A stretch of 64,000 nt of DNA from positions 20,313 to 84,312 of the forward strand of contig CALXJG010000001.1 in NCBI GenBank assembly GCA_944388565.1. The letters run 5' to 3'. Positions within the stretch are counted from its first letter, which is position 1; each line of letters opens with the position of its first letter. The stretch comes from an uncultured Clostridia bacterium. GTDB lineage: Bacteria > Bacillota > Clostridia > TANB77 > CAG-465. The notes below the pieces were generated by a model that was not told where the DNA came from, ran no database searches, and was given only the letters and a program-made list of their open reading frames with translations. This document shows, piece after piece, positions 30,065 to 63,781 of the stretch. The position numbers were made by a program, and so were the translations under genes.

Positions 30065-30778
30065 TTACACTTTAAAGATTACTTCCTTTTTCCCGTTAAC
30101 ATATACAGAAATTTCAGAGCGAGTAATTCTCATGATTGTTTTCCACGGGAATAGCTCTACCGGAACATTGCAGTAATTAGCAACTTTTAAAAGAAGTTCT
30201 GTAGGACCATAGTCGCTGCAAAGGGAAGTGTTGCCGTAGCGTTCAATTTCGTTTTCAATTTCATTGGATAGCTTTTTTACAAACTCATTTAAGCTTTCTT
30301 CTGAAACGTTTGCATACTTTGCTCTAGCAACAGCAAGTTTGCTTAAAATGTCACTAGTATCAGATTTTTCACCATTGCTATATTTGGAAAAATCTGTTTC
30401 AAGTAGCCTATCTTTCCACCATTTTGCTGCAACTTCGCTATACTTCATTATGTTTTCCTCCTTGTAAAGTTTGTACTCTTTATATGAACAAGAAAAAATC
30501 TCTTGATCATTTACAGGTATGTCTAAGGCTTTTAATATTTCAATAGTACCAAGAGGTCCTATTCCTCTATATCCAGCACTTACATCTGTAATATAAAACC
30601 TAACATCTCCTGTTTGGATTTGTAAAGGATATGTCTTGGGATTATTTGGATTTATTTTACTTGCATCATAATTAATACAAGCTGTAATATTTCCTTTTTT
30701 TCCCCACCGATTGATAGCAGCTATTGCTCTTTTAACGCTGTCTTTTGTGTTTCCAGTTCTAATACTTATCTTTTGCAT
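30065..30778 (-). CDS. hypothetical two-domain protein; N-terminal ~100 aa paralogous to adjacent 113-aa protein
   Basis: ORF in compositionally distinct (GC-richer) segment; shared motif PL.I.T.D..F...D..AGY.G.GP.GT.E.LK.LD. Confidence 0.6.
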   Translation of the reverse strand: MQKISIRTGNTKDSVKRAIAAINRWGKKGNITACINYDASKINPNNPKTYPLQIQTGDVRFYITDVSAGYRGIGPLGTIEILKALDIPVNDQEIFSCSYKEYKLYKEENIMKYSEVAAKWWKDRLLETDFSKYSNGEKSDTSDILSKLAVARAKYANVSEESLNEFVKKLSNEIENEIERYGNTSLCSDYGPTELLLKVANYCNVPVELFPWKTIMRITRSEISVYVNGKKEVIFKV

Positions 30779-30791
30779 ATATAAATCCTTT

Positions 30792-31133
30792 CTATCTTCT
30801 AATTAACAGATTTGTAATACCATTTTCACGTCGCCGATAAATTTCATTTTCATCAAACGTCATGTCAAGGTATTTTAAAACTTCTACTGTTCCTTGTGGA
30901 CCGGTTCCACCATAACCAGCGGTACAATCTGCAAGGCAGAATACGTAGTCATCAGTGTATATCGTAAGCGGAAATGTTAAGGGATCTTGCTCGTAGGAGA
31001 TAAGTTCGTTTACATTGTAGTAAACCTTTGCATATCTAACTTTATCATTAGATAAACAAAGTTTTTTGAAAATCTCCATAAAAGATTTAATAGTTCTTTC
31101 AGTTGAACCTTCCATGATTGCAATTGTTTTCAT
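30792..31133 (-). CDS. hypothetical protein (113 aa), single-domain paralog of N-terminal domain of 30065-30778 product
   Basis: ORF; motif DCTAGYGGTGPQGTVEVLKYLD aligns to DVSAGYRGIGPLGTIEILKALD. Confidence 0.6.
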   Translation of the reverse strand: MKTIAIMEGSTERTIKSFMEIFKKLCLSNDKVRYAKVYYNVNELISYEQDPLTFPLTIYTDDYVFCLADCTAGYGGTGPQGTVEVLKYLDMTFDENEIYRRRENGITNLLIRR

Positions 31134-31322
31134 TTTACATCCTCCATAATTATATATTTGGTATAAAACAATACTATAAATATTATACCACTTTTCTTTA
31201 TTTATGTCAACAATAGTGATTAAAAGTATATTAAACAGAATGTTACATTAAATTGATTATATATACTATATTTTTATTTAATTTTATGATATAATAAAAA
31301 ATATTTTATTTGAGGTGGTTTT

Positions 31323-46613: not shown

Positions 46614-48478
46614 GTATGATGGGCATGTCATAAATCTAGGGTGAAAGTCCCAAGAGACGTATTTGTCGCGAACTCAATAGCAACTTGCAAAGCATAAACC
46701 AGTAATGGAGTGTGAAAAGAAGCAATAGCGAAATCGTGGCTCTATGAATAAGAACTTGATATTAAGGCTTATTAGACGGATAAGTTGCCAGAATACAACG
46801 AAGTCCAAAAGACAAACGTAAATCTAATGAGTAAATCAAGAGAGTAAACGAGGAAAGAGTTATGGCTTATCCCATGAGGTCCTATAAACGAATCAGTAGT
46901 AACAACGAATTATAGGAAGTCAGCAGAGGTCATAGTAGGAACTATTATCCGAAGGACCGAACAATTTATAAGACTATGAAAATCTTGAAATCTCTTGCAA
47001 TTAATCAGAATAAATAAAGATGATAGGTTTAAGCGTATCTTAAATGGGTAATCCAAAAGATGGTATTGCAAGATAACGAAAAGAAAGGAAGTAGACAAGC
47101 TATGAAAGAAGATATTATTACAAAAATACTTGACCGAAACAATTTAAATGAGGCCTATAAAAATGTTAAAGCAAATAAAGGAGCAAGTGGAATTGACGAT
47201 TTATCAATTGAGGAAACAGCAGAATACATAAGACAAAATAAGGCTACCATTGTATGGCAATTGTATAATCGTAAATATCAACCACAGCCAGTGCGTAGAG
47301 TAGAAATACCAAAACCAAATGGTGGAATAAGGAAATTGGGTATACCAATAGTGCTAGACAGAATTATCCAGCAAGCAATGGTGCAAGTATTAGCTCCAAT
47401 GTTTGAACCATATTTTAGTGAATACAGTTATGGATTTAGACCAAAAAGAAGTTGTCAACAAGCTATAATTAAAGCACTAGAATACATGAACGACGGGTAT
47501 GAATGGATAGTAGACATTGACCTAGAGAAATTCTTTGATAATGTGCCACACGACAGATTATTAAGACTAGTAAGTGATGTAGTAAAAGATGGAAATGTAG
47601 TTTCATTGGTAAATAAATTTCTTAAAGCAGGAGTAATGATAAAAGGTAATTATGAAGAGACTACAATAGGAACACCACAAGGAGGACCTTTATCACCATT
47701 ACTATCAAATATTATGCTTAATTTACTAGATAAGGAATTAGAGGCAAGAAATTTACATTTTACAAGATATGCAGACGATACAATAATTTTAGTTAAAAGT
47801 GAAAAGGCAGCAAATAGAATAATGACATCAATAACAAAATTTATTGAAAATAAACTAAAACTAAAAGTTAATATAACAAAAACAAAAGTATGCACACCTT
47901 GGAATTTAAAATATCTAGGTTTTGGATTTTGCAAAATGAAGAAATGGGAATGTATACCCCATAAAGAAAGTAAAAAGAAATTTCAAAGAGCATTAAAACG
48001 ACTAACAAATAGAAGTAAAAATATGTCACTAGACAGAAGAATAGAACAATTAAATTGGACTATTAGAGGTTGGGTAAATTATTTTAGGATTGGAAAAATG
48101 AAGAAATTTCTAGAACGCACAGATGAACACTTACGTGCAAGAATTAGAGTAATTATTTGGAAACAGTGGAAAACACCAAAGACCCAAATAAAGAACCTAG
48201 TCAAATGTGGACTTTCACTAAATAATGCTAGAGGATTAGCCTATTGTAGAAGAGGATATACATTTGTAGCACATTCACAAATTTTGCAAACGGCTATTTC
48301 GAAAGAAAGACTACAAAAACCAAATAATAATCTAAAACGCAGAGGATTAGTCCTTGCTTTAGATTACTATCTAGCTTGAAATAAACTTATAAATTGAACC
48401 GCCCATTGCCGAACGGCACGATGTGGTGGTGTGAGAGGGGATGAAAATTTTATTTAATAAAATTTTCTACTCTACTCG
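46614..48478 (+). mobile_element. group II intron (bacterial class C-like, endonuclease-less IEP); boundaries approximate
   Basis: begins right after terminator T-run with gtatgatgggcatgtcataaatctAGGGTGaAAGTCccAAG (cf. Ll.LtrB 5' GTGCGCCCAGATAGGGTGTTAAGTCAAG); RT/maturase ORF in domain IV; candidate domain V 48399-48429 with CGC triad; perfect 11-bp hairpin 48443-48467. Confidence 0.75.
47102..48379 (+). CDS. group II intron reverse transcriptase/maturase (IEP), no HNH endonuclease domain
   Basis: RT motifs (GIDDLSIEE, PKPNGGIRKLGIP, FRPKRS, IVDIDLEKFFDN, GTPQGGPLSPLLSNI, YADD), domain X (RGWVNYFRIGKM); alternative ATG at 47060. Confidence 0.85.
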   Translation: MKEDIITKILDRNNLNEAYKNVKANKGASGIDDLSIEETAEYIRQNKATIVWQLYNRKYQPQPVRRVEIPKPNGGIRKLGIPIVLDRIIQQAMVQVLAPMFEPYFSEYSYGFRPKRSCQQAIIKALEYMNDGYEWIVDIDLEKFFDNVPHDRLLRLVSDVVKDGNVVSLVNKFLKAGVMIKGNYEETTIGTPQGGPLSPLLSNIMLNLLDKELEARNLHFTRYADDTIILVKSEKAANRIMTSITKFIENKLKLKVNITKTKVCTPWNLKYLGFGFCKMKKWECIPHKESKKKFQRALKRLTNRSKNMSLDRRIEQLNWTIRGWVNYFRIGKMKKFLERTDEHLRARIRVIIWKQWKTPKTQIKNLVKCGLSLNNARGLAYCRRGYTFVAHSQILQTAISKERLQKPNNNLKRRGLVLALDYYLA

Positions 48479-50618: not shown

Positions 50619-50652
50619 ATAAGAATGGGTTAAGCACTCATTCTTTATTTTT
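50619..50652 (+). terminator. rho-independent terminator
   Basis: aagaatg-ggttaagcact-cattctt + T-run. Confidence 0.6.
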
Positions 50653-50813
50653 TAAAAATGAGTTGACATAAATATAAAAATGTGATATAATATATATTAG
50701 TAGTGATTGATGATTAGGATTTAAATAAAGACTAATGAAACAAACTAGCTAAAAGTTTATTTTTCTTTATTATCTTATTCATCTTTCTAAATATTATATA
50801 AAGGAGCGGCATT

Positions 50814-51650
50814 ATGGCAAAGAAGTATTTTAGCATTAGAGAGGCAATCCGTCTTGCAGAGTCCGGTATGACACGGCAGGAGCTGATTGAGTATTTTGGG
50901 CTTACAGAGTCCGAATACAAGAAAAAGTTTGCCAGCTTTTCTGAGGCAAACAGAAAGCGGCTTAAGTGTTTGCTTATTGCTGCAAGTGGTAAGAAAAAGA
51001 AGAAGCCGATTGAAAAACCGGTTATTCTGGAGGTAAACAAGAATAAAGAAGAAGTAATGGAGGTATGGGATACCTCATATATTCTCCATATTGCAAATCT
51101 TGAAGGGGATATGTCAAATGTAGTTATCCTTCCTGAGGTATACCAGCAGCTGGCGTATCACGAAAGGAGAGGAAATGGAAAGATTTGTCGTCTTTTCCAT
51201 ATGATCTTAGATGGAAGAGCTAAGGTAAACCTGGTAGCCGAATCTTTTGTCCCCGATAATGTCCCTAAGGATGAAGACCCGGCAGATTATGAGTTGTACG
51301 AGTATGTAAGACAGCATAAAAATACTGTTTTGTATACTTGCGATAAGTCACTTGCAATTAAGTGCCTTAGAGCAAATCTCCCTTATAAGTTTTTTAATAG
51401 GGGAGAGTATGGTACAAAAAGAGAAGAAGGACTGATTATAAGAAGGGGAAAGCTCTTTGGGGTCAATCCTAATCGAAAAGATGTCCTGGTGTTCGATAGA
51501 GCAAACAGGATTAAAAGAATGAACAAGCATTTTTTGATTCCTGTTCAGTACGGCGATATCGTCGTATGCGGAGATAAGACCTATATGGTCTTAAATTCAG
51601 AAGGAAAGATGGAGGAGATAGAAGGTAAAAAGAATAATAGGTTAGCGTAA
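50814..51650 (+). CDS. hypothetical protein of foreign composition; candidate PIN-like nuclease domain with N-terminal HTH-like segment
   Basis: much GC-richer than flanks; VWDTSYILHI...VVILPEVYQQL...YTCDKSLAIKCL resembles PIN motifs. Confidence 0.45.
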   Translation: MAKKYFSIREAIRLAESGMTRQELIEYFGLTESEYKKKFASFSEANRKRLKCLLIAASGKKKKKPIEKPVILEVNKNKEEVMEVWDTSYILHIANLEGDMSNVVILPEVYQQLAYHERRGNGKICRLFHMILDGRAKVNLVAESFVPDNVPKDEDPADYELYEYVRQHKNTVLYTCDKSLAIKCLRANLPYKFFNRGEYGTKREEGLIIRRGKLFGVNPNRKDVLVFDRANRIKRMNKHFLIPVQYGDIVVCGDKTYMVLNSEGKMEEIEGKKNNRLA

Positions 51651-51666
51651 CAACATTTAGCATCCA

Positions 51667-51710
51667 AAAGGCCACATATGTGTTTACATATGTGGTCAAT
51701 TTTTTTCTTT
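51667..51710. terminator. bidirectional terminator hairpin
   Basis: ggccacatatgt-gttt-acatatgtggtc + T-run. Confidence 0.65.
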
Positions 51711-52151
51711 TAAATATGCAATGGTAACTCCGTAACTTCCTTCAAAGTAATCTGCTAACTGGTATTTATCTATATATGGACTAGAACTTAAGTATTTATG
51801 AACTGCTTTTCTAAGAATTCCACCATGTCTACCATGTATAATTCTCACACGTTTTGCTCTATGAGCTATAGCATCACTAATGAATACATCAAGATTATAT
51901 AATGCTACTTCAACAGTTTGATGTCTAAGCATTATTTCTTCATTAAAATCATCACTGTTTAATGTATATTTTATATTAACATTATTTTTGTTATCTATTT
52001 TCTTGTTTGATAATCTAATTTTATCTTCACTAGTTTTTAAAATACTAGAGTTTGGAATTATCTTTATAGTATAGATATTATTATTTTTTCTTATTATTTT
52101 TCCAATTAAATTAGTATTAATAATTTCAACTAAATCTCCTATATTGTACAT
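51696..52151 (-). CDS. Smr-domain protein
   Basis: C-terminus LRHQTVEVALYNLDVFISDAIAHRAKRVRIIHGRHGGILRKAVHKYL matches Smr/MutS2 C-terminal nickase domain. Confidence 0.7.
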   Translation of the reverse strand: MYNIGDLVEIINTNLIGKIIRKNNNIYTIKIIPNSSILKTSEDKIRLSNKKIDNKNNVNIKYTLNSDDFNEEIMLRHQTVEVALYNLDVFISDAIAHRAKRVRIIHGRHGGILRKAVHKYLSSSPYIDKYQLADYFEGSYGVTIAYLKEKN

Positions 52152-52250
52152 AACAAAATTCCTTTCGCACTTATTATATCATAATTTAAATTATTTTACA
52201 ATTATATAAAAAAAGAGCGCCACTTTAATTTAAAGTGACACCCTATTTAA

Positions 52251-52976
52251 TTAAAAATCGTACTCGATGAACATAGCAGCCTCTTCTGTATTAAAGGTTT
52301 TTGTTTCTTTTAATACTAAGCCCTCGTCATAAATCTCCAATTCTGTAGGGGAATTCCAGACAAGGTAGTCATTGCGGTCTGTCCTAAAAATATACCACTT
52401 CCATTTTTTGAATACAAACTTACCACTATTAGTGTCTAATATATTATAATCAATATAATTCTCATCTCTAGCACCTAAAATCGCATAAGGATCAATTTCA
52501 TCTCCAATTAGGCTTAAATCCTCCTTAAAGAGAGGAGTGAAATTTGGAGATACAATGTTGTAGGTTTCTTCACGAGGCTTTTTTATAAGAATATTTCCAT
52601 TTTCACATATTCTCAAAGGTATAAAGTCATCAAGATTTTTCATAAGCTTAGTAACTTCAGTAAGTTCTCCACTTACATTCAGAAAAAACCAGTCTTCCTT
52701 TATTTTTAATGCTGCAATGAAGTCTTTCATATTCATTTCAACAATTTCGGTTGCGTTTATGCCCATAATAATGAAACCAAAACCTGCTTTATACACGGAG
52801 TGAGTATTATCATTCTTAATGATATAAACATAATCTTCATTATCTAAGAAGCAAGCGTAAATACATCCTAATATTAAAGTTTTAACTTTCCGAATGTAAT
52901 CAATGATGATTGTATTTCCATCAGCGTAATGGAATCCGAGAGTACCAATTGTGTTTCTTTTTTCGTTTGTCTTCAT
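52251..52976 (-). CDS. hypothetical protein (241 aa)
   Basis: ORF, moderately GC-enriched vs surroundings. Confidence 0.45.
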   Translation of the reverse strand: MKTNEKRNTIGTLGFHYADGNTIIIDYIRKVKTLILGCIYACFLDNEDYVYIIKNDNTHSVYKAGFGFIIMGINATEIVEMNMKDFIAALKIKEDWFFLNVSGELTEVTKLMKNLDDFIPLRICENGNILIKKPREETYNIVSPNFTPLFKEDLSLIGDEIDPYAILGARDENYIDYNILDTNSGKFVFKKWKWYIFRTDRNDYLVWNSPTELEIYDEGLVLKETKTFNTEEAAMFIEYDF

Positions 52977-53226
52977 GATGTAAACCCTCCTAAAGGTATA
53001 AATTATATTACTATTATAGCAAAAAAAAATATTTATGTCAAGTCTTCTGCTTAAAACATTTTAAGAACTAGTAAAAATAATTCAAATCTTATACATTTGG
53101 TATATAAAATATATTTTATTGTTATAAATACATTTCATCAAATTTTCACATTTAAACTATTTACAAATAATTATTTCTGTGTTAAAATATTTCCTATTGC
53201 AAAACATTATTTGCAGGAGGTAGGAT

Positions 53227-57526: not shown

Positions 57527-57599
57527 CAAAAATTAAAACCATTTATTGAACTTAGATAAAATATATATTATAATAAAAATAAGTTTATATGGTGAAATT

Positions 57600-58094
57600 A
57601 TGAATAAAAAAATATTTATATTATTAATTGTATTAATTTTAATTATTATATTGCTTAGTGTAGTTTTTATAATTTTTTGCAACAAAAAAAACGAAGGAAA
57701 TGAAATTGCCGCAATCAATTTGTATGAAGAATTAATTGATAAGATTTTAGAAAATAGTGTATATGAAAGCGATAATTATATATCAATAGATACGACTTCT
57801 TTTATAGATCCATTAAATAACAACATTCTTTCTGAAAACGCACAAACAGAGATATTAGATTATTGTAGAAAATATAACAAAGTGATTTACAAAAGTAATG
57901 GTATAGATTTAAAAGATGAGTCCTTAGAAGGAGTTAAAATCACTTTTAATATTAGAAAGAAGAAAAAAGAAACAATAAACATTGATGTTAATTGTTATAG
58001 ATCTAATTTAGGTAGTGGTGGTAGGGAGTATATTTGTACTTATAGTAATAATACATGGAATATATCAAATGGTACTACTGTATGGAGTTCTTAA
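57600..58094 (+). CDS. hypothetical signal-anchored protein
   Basis: ATG 57600 after GGTGAA; N-terminal TM IFILLIVLILIIILLSVVFIIF. Confidence 0.45.
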   Translation: MNKKIFILLIVLILIIILLSVVFIIFCNKKNEGNEIAAINLYEELIDKILENSVYESDNYISIDTTSFIDPLNNNILSENAQTEILDYCRKYNKVIYKSNGIDLKDESLEGVKITFNIRKKKKETINIDVNCYRSNLGSGGREYICTYSNNTWNISNGTTVWSS

Positions 58095-63202: not shown

Positions 63203-63781
63203 TTACTTATCTATAGATAAAGGCAATAACTCATTTAACACATTTTCGATTCTATCACAAAATTTTGCAAGTCCAATCTTTGTTACCTTTGAATAGTTCT
63301 TTGAAATTGCATCAAGAACTGTGTAGATTTGAAATTCAAAATGTTGCAAAAAGTAAAGCGGAACATCTGTTTTGCTCTCCAGCAACCGTTCTAAATCTCT
63401 TTTGTTTTCTACTTTTTTTATAGCAGCAAGTAATCTGAACAATTTGCCAAGATCGCCTCTTAGGCAACTTCTGGTATTAATGATATCAATACTATCCAAA
63501 GCTTTTTTCATTTCCAGAAACGAAATTATATCAGAATAAGAATAGTTTGTAATAGACCTAAAAAGATTAAATTCTCTAACGATATCTTCAAGACTGTATT
63601 TTATCATTAATTCTGATGGAGAAGCAATATTGCAAGTATTATTCGAAGCCTTACTATTTTCTATAGCTTTTTTAATACTCTTTACCTCTTCAATTTGCCG
63701 TTCTGTTTCTTCTATGCTAAGGGTTGCTTTTTCGATTTTTTGTGTAATGAAGTCCTTAAAAATTTGTACTGTTCTTTCCAC
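63203..63781 (-). CDS. hypothetical protein (192 aa)
   Basis: ORF; no recognisable domain. Confidence 0.4.
   Translation of the reverse strand: MERTVQIFKDFITQKIEKATLSIEETERQIEEVKSIKKAIENSKASNNTCNIASPSELMIKYSLEDIVREFNLFRSITNYSYSDIISFLEMKKALDSIDIINTRSCLRGDLGKLFRLLAAIKKVENKRDLERLLESKTDVPLYFLQHFEFQIYTVLDAISKNYSKVTKIGLAKFCDRIENVLNELLPLSIDK

Follow-up and report, generated by a model that had tools for sequence, protein, structure and literature searches.

Do three small neighboring genes in the genome of an uncultured Clostridia bacterium form one defense system, or are they separate genes that happen to adjoin? The genes lie in a 2.3-kb stretch of a 64-kb window, by which we mean the whole stretch of DNA that was analyzed, and all coordinates given here are positions in that window. 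Conserved core genes flank the stretch, a UDP-sugar pyrophosphorylase gene (UDPGP) on one side and a MarR-ABC exporter operon on the other. The open reading frames (ORFs) are found at the positions and on the strands where an earlier reading of the bare sequence, the original prediction, had placed them: g1 (50814–51650, + strand, 278 aa), the Smr gene (51696–52151, − strand, 151 aa), and g3 (52251–52976, − strand, 241 aa). That prediction had proposed that they make up a foreign-composition islet with a single defense or toxin–antitoxin (TA)-like module, with a candidate PIN-like nuclease encoded by g1. Our analysis gives a different answer: the stretch consists of three independently transcribed genes of differing histories, and it is not one system. 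We think it probable, though well short of certain, that g1 is a solitary functional protein that carries a helix-turn-helix motif (HTH), a PIN domain, and a beta domain, probably an RNA endonuclease or an attenuated RNA binder, whose coding sequence has been swapped, that the Smr gene encodes a native ribosome-associated KOW-SMR protein, and that g3 is an unrelated hypervariable orphan.

The window has an overall GC content of about 27%. Its most GC-rich part is 51001–51500, within g1, where the GC fraction reaches 0.394, the maximum among 128 windows of 500 nt. For g1 as a whole, the GC fraction is 0.397 against a mean of 0.277 over the 50 genes of the window (z = 3.7; all z values are relative to these 50 genes), and the corresponding values at third codon positions (GC3) are 0.412 and 0.144 (z = 4.9), making g1 the strongest outlier of the 50. 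Since the GC fraction at second codon positions is average, the excess lies at synonymous sites, and GC3 is high in every domain of the protein (0.37–0.48). The striking GC richness that had been reported for g1 is thus borne out. g3, which had also been described as GC-enriched, is a milder outlier (GC3 0.302, z = 2.9). However, the Smr gene is native in composition (GC 0.241, GC3 0.118), so that the “islet” amounts to two atypical genes with a native gene between them. Atypical composition together with a definable boundary is seen for the g1 coding sequence alone, which has a sharp 3′ edge at 51670–51700. The hallmarks of mobility are missing, and so is presence/absence polymorphism, as g1 is always present and only the copy number of g3 varies. 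A search for flanking direct repeats or att sites returned just promoter look-alikes and chance matches, no integrase lies close to the locus, and a tRNA scan found none. When a hidden RNA gene was sought in the GC-rich stretch with an Rfam scan, the sole match was the upstream group II intron.

Promoters and terminators were located by consensus scans, which gave seven terminator-like sites compared with 0.9 expected. Upstream of g1, a predicted intrinsic terminator of the UDPGP gene (50621–50645, + strand), with a 10-bp stem followed by a T-run, would insulate g1 from upstream transcription. The putative g1 promoter (50663–50691, + strand), TTGACA-17 nt-TATAAT with a TG-extended −10 element, matches the consensus at 12 of 12 positions. 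It is followed by a 122-nt 5′ leader (50692–50813, + strand), which ends with the ribosome-binding site (RBS) AAAGGAG and contains an imperfect palindrome, ATTAGG-N12-ACTAAT, at 50713–50736. A bidirectional hairpin terminator at 51670–51697, with stems of 12 bp on the + strand and 10 bp on the − strand, is common to g1 and the Smr gene, which are convergent. The Smr promoter (52173–52201, − strand), TTGTAA-17 nt-TATAAT with TG, matches the consensus at 10 of 12 positions and has an extended −10 element, and a terminator with a 14-bp stem and a T-run (52214–52244, − strand) parts g3 from Smr. The promoter of g3, TTGACATAAATAT...TGCTATAAT (53013–53041, − strand), matches at 12 of 12 positions, with TG. 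As read from these signals, g1, Smr, and g3 are three separate monocistronic units, each with its own sigma-A-type promoter and hairpin terminator. The g1 and g3 promoters have an exact 13-mer in common, and together they form a 33-nt inverted repeat that is 76% complementary. The pattern TTGACATAA-N9-13-TGNTANAAT occurs three times in the 64 kb (0.01 expected), and each of the three sites precedes a GC3-rich orphan unit, namely g1, g3, and a unit at 30065–31210. We considered whether perfect promoters are exclusive to GC-rich orphans, and we rejected this idea since, of the five such promoters in the window, two belong to ordinary genes.

What kind of protein does g1 encode? Searches of Pfam, NCBIfam, PHROGs, and PADLOC with the protein gave nothing significant. 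In a word-index search of 5.8 billion proteins, all matches were at least 95% identical to it, and an exhaustive HMMER search of 1.84 billion representatives defined a family of 18 proteins at E ≤ 1e-3, with members outside the window species 31–52% identical to g1. A single-sequence AF2 model was unusable (pLDDT 44). With an alignment of 12 sequences, the pLDDT rose to 78.5 overall and to about 90 in the core (residues about 80–195). The protein is predicted to consist of an HTH (aa 1–60, 50814–50993, + strand), a Lys-rich, disordered linker (aa 61–80, + strand), a PIN core (aa 81–196, 51054–51401, + strand; pLDDT ~90), and a beta domain (aa 197–278, 51402–51647, + strand). The predicted order of elements in the core is b1(82–85)-a-b2(103–105)-a-a-b3(138–140)-a-b4(171–175)-a-b5(191–193), and the modeled fold is the alpha/beta/alpha sandwich with five parallel strands that characterizes the PIN superfamily (PMC5499597).

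Foldseek comparison of the g1 model with the PDB retrieved almost exclusively PIN domains, with probability ≥0.99. The matches include the archaeal PINA helicase (E = 2e-5), AF0591/1o4w (E = 2.5e-4, TM 0.57 over 125 columns), and 3ix7, the PIN domain of a YacL-like PIN-TRAM protein (E = 4.4e-4, TM 0.60), as well as Rrp44/Dis3, Utp24/Fcf1, Nob1, SMG6, and Nmd4, while VapC toxins appear only at E ≥ 0.035. The matched structures all belong to the “VapC-like” structural group of the superfamily, in which 1o4w represents PIN_9 (archaeal Fcf1-like) and 3ix7 represents COG4956 (PIN-TRAM) (Matelska et al., PMC5499597). A search of a viral fold library with g1 returned generic PIN/PhoH matches only. 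At the sequence level, 1o4w matches the D158...TxDK region of g1 below threshold (E = 0.82) and in register, PF13638 PIN_4 is a subthreshold match in 4 of 17 family members (best E = 0.057), and PIN_3 (0.074) and DUF188 give single or double subthreshold matches in the family. The sequence evidence is weak, though in register; the predicted structure is decisive for the assignment. Judged by this model, g1 is a PIN-fold protein with the architecture HTH-PIN-small beta domain, and the PIN-like core of the original prediction is upheld by the predicted fold and the Foldseek matches.

The conserved acidic residues expected of a PIN domain are present at the level of the family. The alignment shows an invariant D86-T-S, followed by ILPxVY-E-QL, YED-x-A-D158, and VYT-x-D177-K, giving the acidic tetrad D86/E111/D158/D177 with the spacing expected for PIN acidic residues. 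D86 is invariant, every other full-length member has Glu at residue 111, conservation of D158 is 90% or more, and D177 is likewise conserved; D155, beside D158, is also among the conserved motif residues. In the predicted structure, the four residues of the tetrad are located directly after strands 1, 2, 3, and 4. The catalytic residues named in the original prediction therefore need revision: D86 and D177 stand, but E108 of the LPEVY motif is not conserved in the family, the true column is residue 111, and D158 of YEDxAD had been overlooked. The window protein itself lacks the complete tetrad. Residue 111 is Gln (CAG, 51144–51146) in 19 of 19 conspecific copies, and the nearby E108 is the unconserved residue just mentioned. 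This E111Q substitution may attenuate catalysis in this species.

The regions on either side of the PIN core are also much as had been anticipated. The N-terminal segment is HTH-like, with helices predicted at pLDDT 87–89 and subthreshold HTH_23, HTH_28, and HTH_7 matches in several family members, and the C-terminal tail is beta-rich, with six predicted strands at pLDDT 68–83 and no family match. Domains have been gained and lost as modules within the family: the sister species have two copies of the HTH, the member P0067 has none, and several short members have no beta domain. The sister-species homologs (L012 6810–7835, 341 aa; L017 8001–9014, 337 aa) carry the HTH duplication in tandem at the N terminus, and the first repeat is the one closer to the window HTH (62–72% identity). 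At that level, the HTH is the best-conserved domain of g1, and the C-terminal domain is the most variable (26–45%).

The gene is under purifying selection and is fixed in the species. It is intact in all 19 conspecific copies, and its within-species pN/pS is 0.08, comparable to 0.06 for UDPGP. Among conspecific contigs recovered through the MarR gene, a sampling that is unbiased as to g1, it is found in all nine that reach that far. The two sister organisms, L012 and L017, have the same gene order: UDPGP, a g1 homolog, a convergent Smr gene, variable genes, and MarR-ABC. The original prediction had set a presence/absence-polymorphic islet against a stretch conserved in relatives with native composition; we find conservation in the relatives, but a composition that is not native. 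The remoter homologs of g1, in three other lineages, have housekeeping neighbors unrelated to those in the window and never Smr; these neighbors are Adk-Map and MoxR in L015, LemA in L013, and a ClpP-like gene and topoisomerase in L030–L036. No member of the family was found in 2.9 million viral contigs, phage records, or plasmids, and neither DNA nor protein comparisons pointed to a phage or plasmid origin. In metagenomes, those of the human gut included, more than 100 contigs contain the exact proteins of the window, which are also present at NCBI.

The immediate upstream region accompanies the gene. All independent loci of g1 homologs have an upstream terminator, a TTGACA(T/A)AA...TG-extended −10 promoter, a leader of 120–150 nt, and AAGGAG. 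Most of them, including those of the sister species and of the L013 and L030 types, also have a motif ATT(A/G)G...CTAAT about 20 nt past the −10 element. RNAalifold analysis of the g1 leaders gave 0 pairs, that is, no conserved RNA structure.

How did a fixed, selected gene come to have a foreign composition? Compared with the sisters, the proteins encoded by the flanking genes of the window are 75–93% identical and Smr is 80–92% identical, but g1 is only 43% and 36% identical; the two sisters are 62% identical to each other in g1. Intergenic DNA is 65–89% identical to that of the sisters, and the g1 promoter and leader, at 74–81%, do not stand out. A sliding comparison shows a sharp 3′ breakpoint at 51670–51700, where identity rises from about 0.27 to 0.85–0.97, at the terminator and the Smr stop codon. 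The sequence of the hairpin shared by g1 and Smr differs from that of the sister species. The window Smr protein ends in ...AYLKEKN (51696–51707) and those of the sisters in ...AYLK, with the three extra residues located where the divergent GC-rich segment stops. The Smr stop codon, together with the terminator common to the two genes, seems to have been remodeled by the replacement event proposed below.

Nei–Gojobori estimates of dS and dN/dS distinguish between rapid evolution in place and replacement. The flanking genes have dS of 0.45–1.2 and dN/dS of 0.06–0.16. For g1, comparison of the window with the sisters gives dS from 2.7 to saturated, values inflated in part by the difference in GC3 itself, with dN/dS of 0.15 for L012 and undefined for L017, where dS is saturated; between the sisters, dS is 1.8 and dN/dS 0.14. 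Thus, at equal dN/dS, g1 exceeds the flanking genes in dS by a factor of 2–4. We rejected faster protein evolution or positive selection as explanations of the divergence, since dN/dS is like that of the neighbors and it is dS that is inflated. High dS at normal dN/dS means that g1 is neither relaxed nor positively selected and that its alleles would predate the species split. From the excess dS, the foreign GC3, and the sharp 3′ breakpoint, we infer that the g1 coding sequence was replaced by that of a distant homolog, an allele or xenolog swap in a fixed slot, rather than evolving quickly in place. GC3 values of members of the g1 family are 0.41, 0.29, 0.29, 0.28, 0.25, and 0.19, compared with about 0.10–0.24 for their hosts, and they point to repeated arrival from GC-richer sources followed by partial amelioration. 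More broadly, with the exception of Smr, the whole interval from UDPGP to MarR seems liable to exchange of alleles.

The Smr gene has a different history. That it encodes an Smr-domain protein is confirmed by Pfam PF01713 (E = 1.2e-18, 67.5 bits against a cut-off of 25.7, model positions 3–77 covered). It matches TIGR01069 (MutS2) at positions 643–790 only (87.7 bits against a cut-off of 400 bits), and it aligns with residues 643–785, the KOW-plus-SMR region, of Bacillus subtilis MutS2. In the KOW/SH3-like part, residues 6–60 align with MutS2 643–700 at low confidence, and the Pfam MSSS match has E = 0.12. With 151 residues and no core, clamp, or ATPase, it is not a full-length MutS2. We regard the Smr gene as a native, conserved “mini-MutS2”, probably of KOW-SMR type. 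The KOW and SMR domains recruit MutS2 to collided ribosomes, with DxH and HGxG, two motifs implicated in mRNA cleavage and binding, turned toward the mRNA, and many Firmicute MutS2 proteins have lost DxH (Park et al., PMC10897456). By comparison with MutS2 structures, DxH is M-L-R and H-G-K-G is H-G-R-H in the window protein, identically in all three species, so that the DxH and HGxG motifs of an SmrB/Cue2-type nuclease are both missing. The Smr protein would be expected to bind collided ribosomes but probably is no nuclease itself, because it has neither the ATPase nor canonical DxH and HGxG motifs. KOW-SMR-only proteins have been reported only from Bacteroidetes, with motifs intact (PMC10897456); the window provides a probable one with both motifs degenerate, in a low-GC Clostridia-type genome.

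g3 is, as its alignments indicate, an orphan in a rapidly turning-over tandem array. As the original prediction had it, the protein is of no recognizable kind: it has no family match in Pfam, NCBIfam, PHROGs, or PADLOC and no sequence relatives in the PDB, and its homologs number only nine, 49–99% identical. Conspecific strains have one, two, or three copies in tandem (241 aa; 241 + 233 aa; 246 + 240 + 233 aa), all with GC3 of about 0.30. The alignment of the paralogs (L010 10001–12583; L003 6526–8161; window 52251–52976) is a mosaic in which the 233-aa copy has the N terminus of the window g3 in L003 and not in L010, which suggests gene conversion within the array. Within the species, pN/pS of g3 is about 0.75, with few substitutions. 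In L017, the same slot holds a 152-aa MarR-adjacent gene to which the C-terminal half of g3 is homologous (hhalign probability 86%). The Smr–MarR slot of the sisters also holds a 349-aa protein (L012 8464–9513; L017 9641–10690), which is unrelated to g3; this protein has a subthreshold match to the WG beta-repeat (23.8 vs 25.6 bits) and, like g1, a raised dS (1.96, about twice that of the flanks) at normal dN/dS.

With these results, the possible explanations of the locus can be compared. A TA-like or defense function might be a property of g1 alone, as a single chain with the HTH as a VapB-like autoregulator, the PIN domain as the toxin, and the variable beta domain as a sensor. The fusion of HTH and PIN invites this idea, since 16% of PIN toxins are paired with HTH antitoxins and fusions of HTH with PIN have been noted (PMC5499597), and so do the contrast between a conserved HTH and a C terminus that is highly variable and missing in some members, the same promoter and leader accompanying g1 in unrelated contexts, and the allele swapping with persistent non-native GC3. 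We regard it as unlikely, however, because g1, in the manner of a housekeeping gene, is fixed and strongly constrained by purifying selection, its neighbors are housekeeping genes and not defense islands, there are no matches to defense models, the evidence for an operator is post hoc, and in this species the presumed toxin site is weakened by Q111.

Somewhat less likely again is the single system of the original prediction, in which g1, Smr, and g3 would be an uncharacterized anti-phage, abortive-infection, or TA-like module on a horizontally acquired islet. Two nuclease-type folds do adjoin, g1 and g3 share atypical composition and near-identical perfect promoters, and alleles of g1 have apparently been swapped between lineages. 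The g1–Smr adjacency recurs in three species, and the g3 slot is hypervariable in copy number, mosaicism, and pN/pS, as is common in conflict loci. Nevertheless, the mapped signals divide the stretch into three transcription units, with g1 and Smr convergent, and Smr is native and as conserved as a core gene. The homologs of g1 elsewhere have neither Smr nor g3 as neighbors, g1 shows no presence/absence polymorphism, and integrase, tRNA, and flanking direct repeats are absent. The family was not found in the viral contigs, phage records, or plasmids, and the PIN fold is nearer to RNA-processing PINs than to VapC. Furthermore, a PADLOC scan (5027 models) gave no match for any of the three proteins, and at the family level, it gave none for 10 g3 members and four scattered single-member matches (E 0.004–0.04) among 17 g1 members, with no consistency between them. 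The claim of one defense or TA-like module is therefore not sustained.

g1 and the KOW-SMR protein might instead be a split two-gene response to ribosome collisions in AT-rich Clostridia, with SMR as the sensor and PIN as an mRNA or rRNA nuclease, a new counterpart of SmrB or of MutS2/Rae1 in Bacillus. The part of MutS2 that binds the ribosome is the one with which the KOW-SMR protein aligns, albeit with MLR for DxH and HGRH for HGxG (PMC10897456), the closest folds to g1 are those of ribosome and RNA-surveillance PINs (Utp24, Nob1, Rrp44, SMG6, and Nmd4), in Gram-positives a PIN-like nuclease, Rae1, has collided ribosomes as its site of action (PMC13622287), and the two genes adjoin in three species. 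We nonetheless find the pairing very improbable. Inherited synteny suffices to account for the adjacency, the mapped signals do not allow co-transcription, and g1 homologs elsewhere are located away from Smr. Swapping of g1 while Smr stayed stable is unexpected for co-adapted partners, the HTH has no obvious ribosomal role, and Q111 is present. Finally, the notion that g1 is a decaying, functionless foreign remnant with an incidental PIN likeness is largely refuted, for although the protein is an orphan in curated databases with atypical composition and a lost conserved Glu, the gene is intact in every copy with low pN/pS, its between-species dN/dS is 0.14–0.15, 17 diverse homologs retain its motifs, a perfect promoter, an RBS, and a terminator accompany it, and its fold match is confident.

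The explanation that we prefer remains three separate genes, with g1 a solitary HTH-PIN-beta protein whose coding sequence was exchanged. Several observations weigh against it. With Gln in place of the normally catalytic Glu at position 111, the g1 product might be inactive as a nuclease. The structural model was built on just 12 sequences, and no curated PIN model in Pfam or NCBIfam exceeds its gathering threshold, nor did searching with the family consensus change this. As to the replacement, it is inferred and not observed: the sampled sequences do not include a donor for the GC-rich allele, with the nearest relative beyond the species 49% identical, and the 5′ breakpoint is diffuse, identity declining gradually through promoter, leader, and HTH. 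The compositional inflation of pS affects the comparisons of window and sister g1, whereas the dS excess between the two sisters (1.8 vs 0.6–1.2) is free of this bias. The idea that the HTH acts at an operator leans on a leader motif that was recognized post hoc and has variable spacing (chance about 0.018 per leader). The g1–Smr adjacency, kept in three species, is compatible with a functional link.

How might the g1 protein act? It would cleave RNA as an endonuclease of the Fcf1/Nob1/PIN_4/PIN-TRAM type, dependent on Mg2+/Mn2+ and specific for structure or sequence. The C-terminal beta domain would aid binding of the substrate, and the HTH would bind DNA, probably the promoter or leader of g1 itself, in autoregulation. 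If this reading is correct, g1 represents a small uncurated branch of the PIN superfamily with an unusual HTH-PIN-beta layout, confined to uncultured AT-rich gut Clostridia, and the locus is a clean case of exchange of a coding sequence between lineages in a fixed slot, with the promoter and neighbors staying in place. The Smr gene would extend the KOW-SMR “mini-MutS2” beyond Bacteroidetes in a form with degenerate motifs, which is relevant to the sensing of ribosome collisions in bacteria. The practical value is to keep the locus from being annotated as defense or TA; current understanding is not overturned.

Other parts of the window are variable as well. The other GC-rich islet, at 30065–31210 (− strand), the third of the units preceded by the promoter pattern, has the promoter TTGACATAAATAAAGAAAAGTGGTATAAT (31210–31182) and two ORFs, one of about 112 aa (31132–30795) and one of 237 aa (30778–30065; GC3 0.256, z = 2.0), which have the common motif ADCTAGYGGTGPQGTVEVLKYLD / TDVSAGYRGIGPLGTIEILKALD and no Pfam match. 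Between a response regulator and a metallophosphoesterase, the segment 45382–48379 contains a 301-aa ORF with no family match and the group II intron, of which Rfam recognizes domains D1–D4 at 46696–46957 and the reverse transcriptase/maturase ORF is at 47060–48379. This segment is polymorphic for insertion, being absent in the conspecific contigs L003 and L004 and having genes of 286 and 99 aa in its place in L001 and L002. Past the ABC exporter genes, a second variable slot not far from the three genes (57546–58094) holds a 164/182-aa gene with no family match in the window, a HipA_C kinase gene (347 aa) with an 88-aa gene in L001 (16776–18157), and a DDE transposase in L006. A 192-aa ORF at 63203–63781 (− strand) has GC3 of 0.254 (z = 2.0) and no Pfam match.

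Which known systems are closest to these genes? The best structural matches of g1 are the Fcf1-like and surveillance PINs, that is, the archaeal PIN_9 proteins (AF0591, 1o4w) together with Utp24/Fcf1, Nob1, Rrp44/Dis3, SMG6, and Nmd4 (Foldseek E from 2e-5 to 4e-3). The g1 model has the same alpha/beta/alpha fold and strand order, and its motifs are in register with theirs, with D-T-S past strand 1, Glu in the next helix, D at a helix N terminus, and T-x-D-K past strand 4. Unlike these proteins, g1 is bacterial, has an added HTH and beta domain, has Gln for Glu in this species, and is not known to be connected with ribosome biogenesis, and its identity to them is just 12–19%. The PIN-TRAM proteins (COG4956, YacL-like, 3ix7) resemble g1 in being bacterial, with a PIN domain followed by a small beta-rich, presumably RNA-binding domain. 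However, the YacL type has N-terminal transmembrane helices and a recognizable TRAM domain (PMC5499597), where g1 has an HTH and a C terminus that matches no family.

The likeness to VapBC lies in the combination of a PIN nuclease with a DNA-binding element, and in a promoter region of g1 with a putative autoregulatory site. In contrast to the two-gene VapBC operon, g1 is monocistronic, with no small partner or antitoxin ORF; the structural match to VapC is weak (E ≥ 0.035), the g1 protein has 278 residues compared with about 130, and g1 is fixed and syntenic, whereas TA loci have a patchy distribution. Rae1/YacP is a PIN-superfamily nuclease that takes part in translation surveillance in Gram-positives (PMC13622287). 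It belongs to the NYN structural group, has no HTH, and has no sequence or fold match to g1, so its resemblance is a functional analogy only. For the Smr protein, the nearest relative is the KOW-SMR module of B. subtilis MutS2, with which it aligns end to end, apparently in the same two-domain layout. It differs from the KOW-SMR proteins of Bacteroidetes, which have intact DxH/GxG (PMC10897456), in its MLR and HGRH motifs and in its low-GC Clostridia-type host. g1 is a new, uncurated member of the PIN-like superfamily whose evolutionary history is instructive and whose architecture is uncommon; it does not represent a novel type of system.

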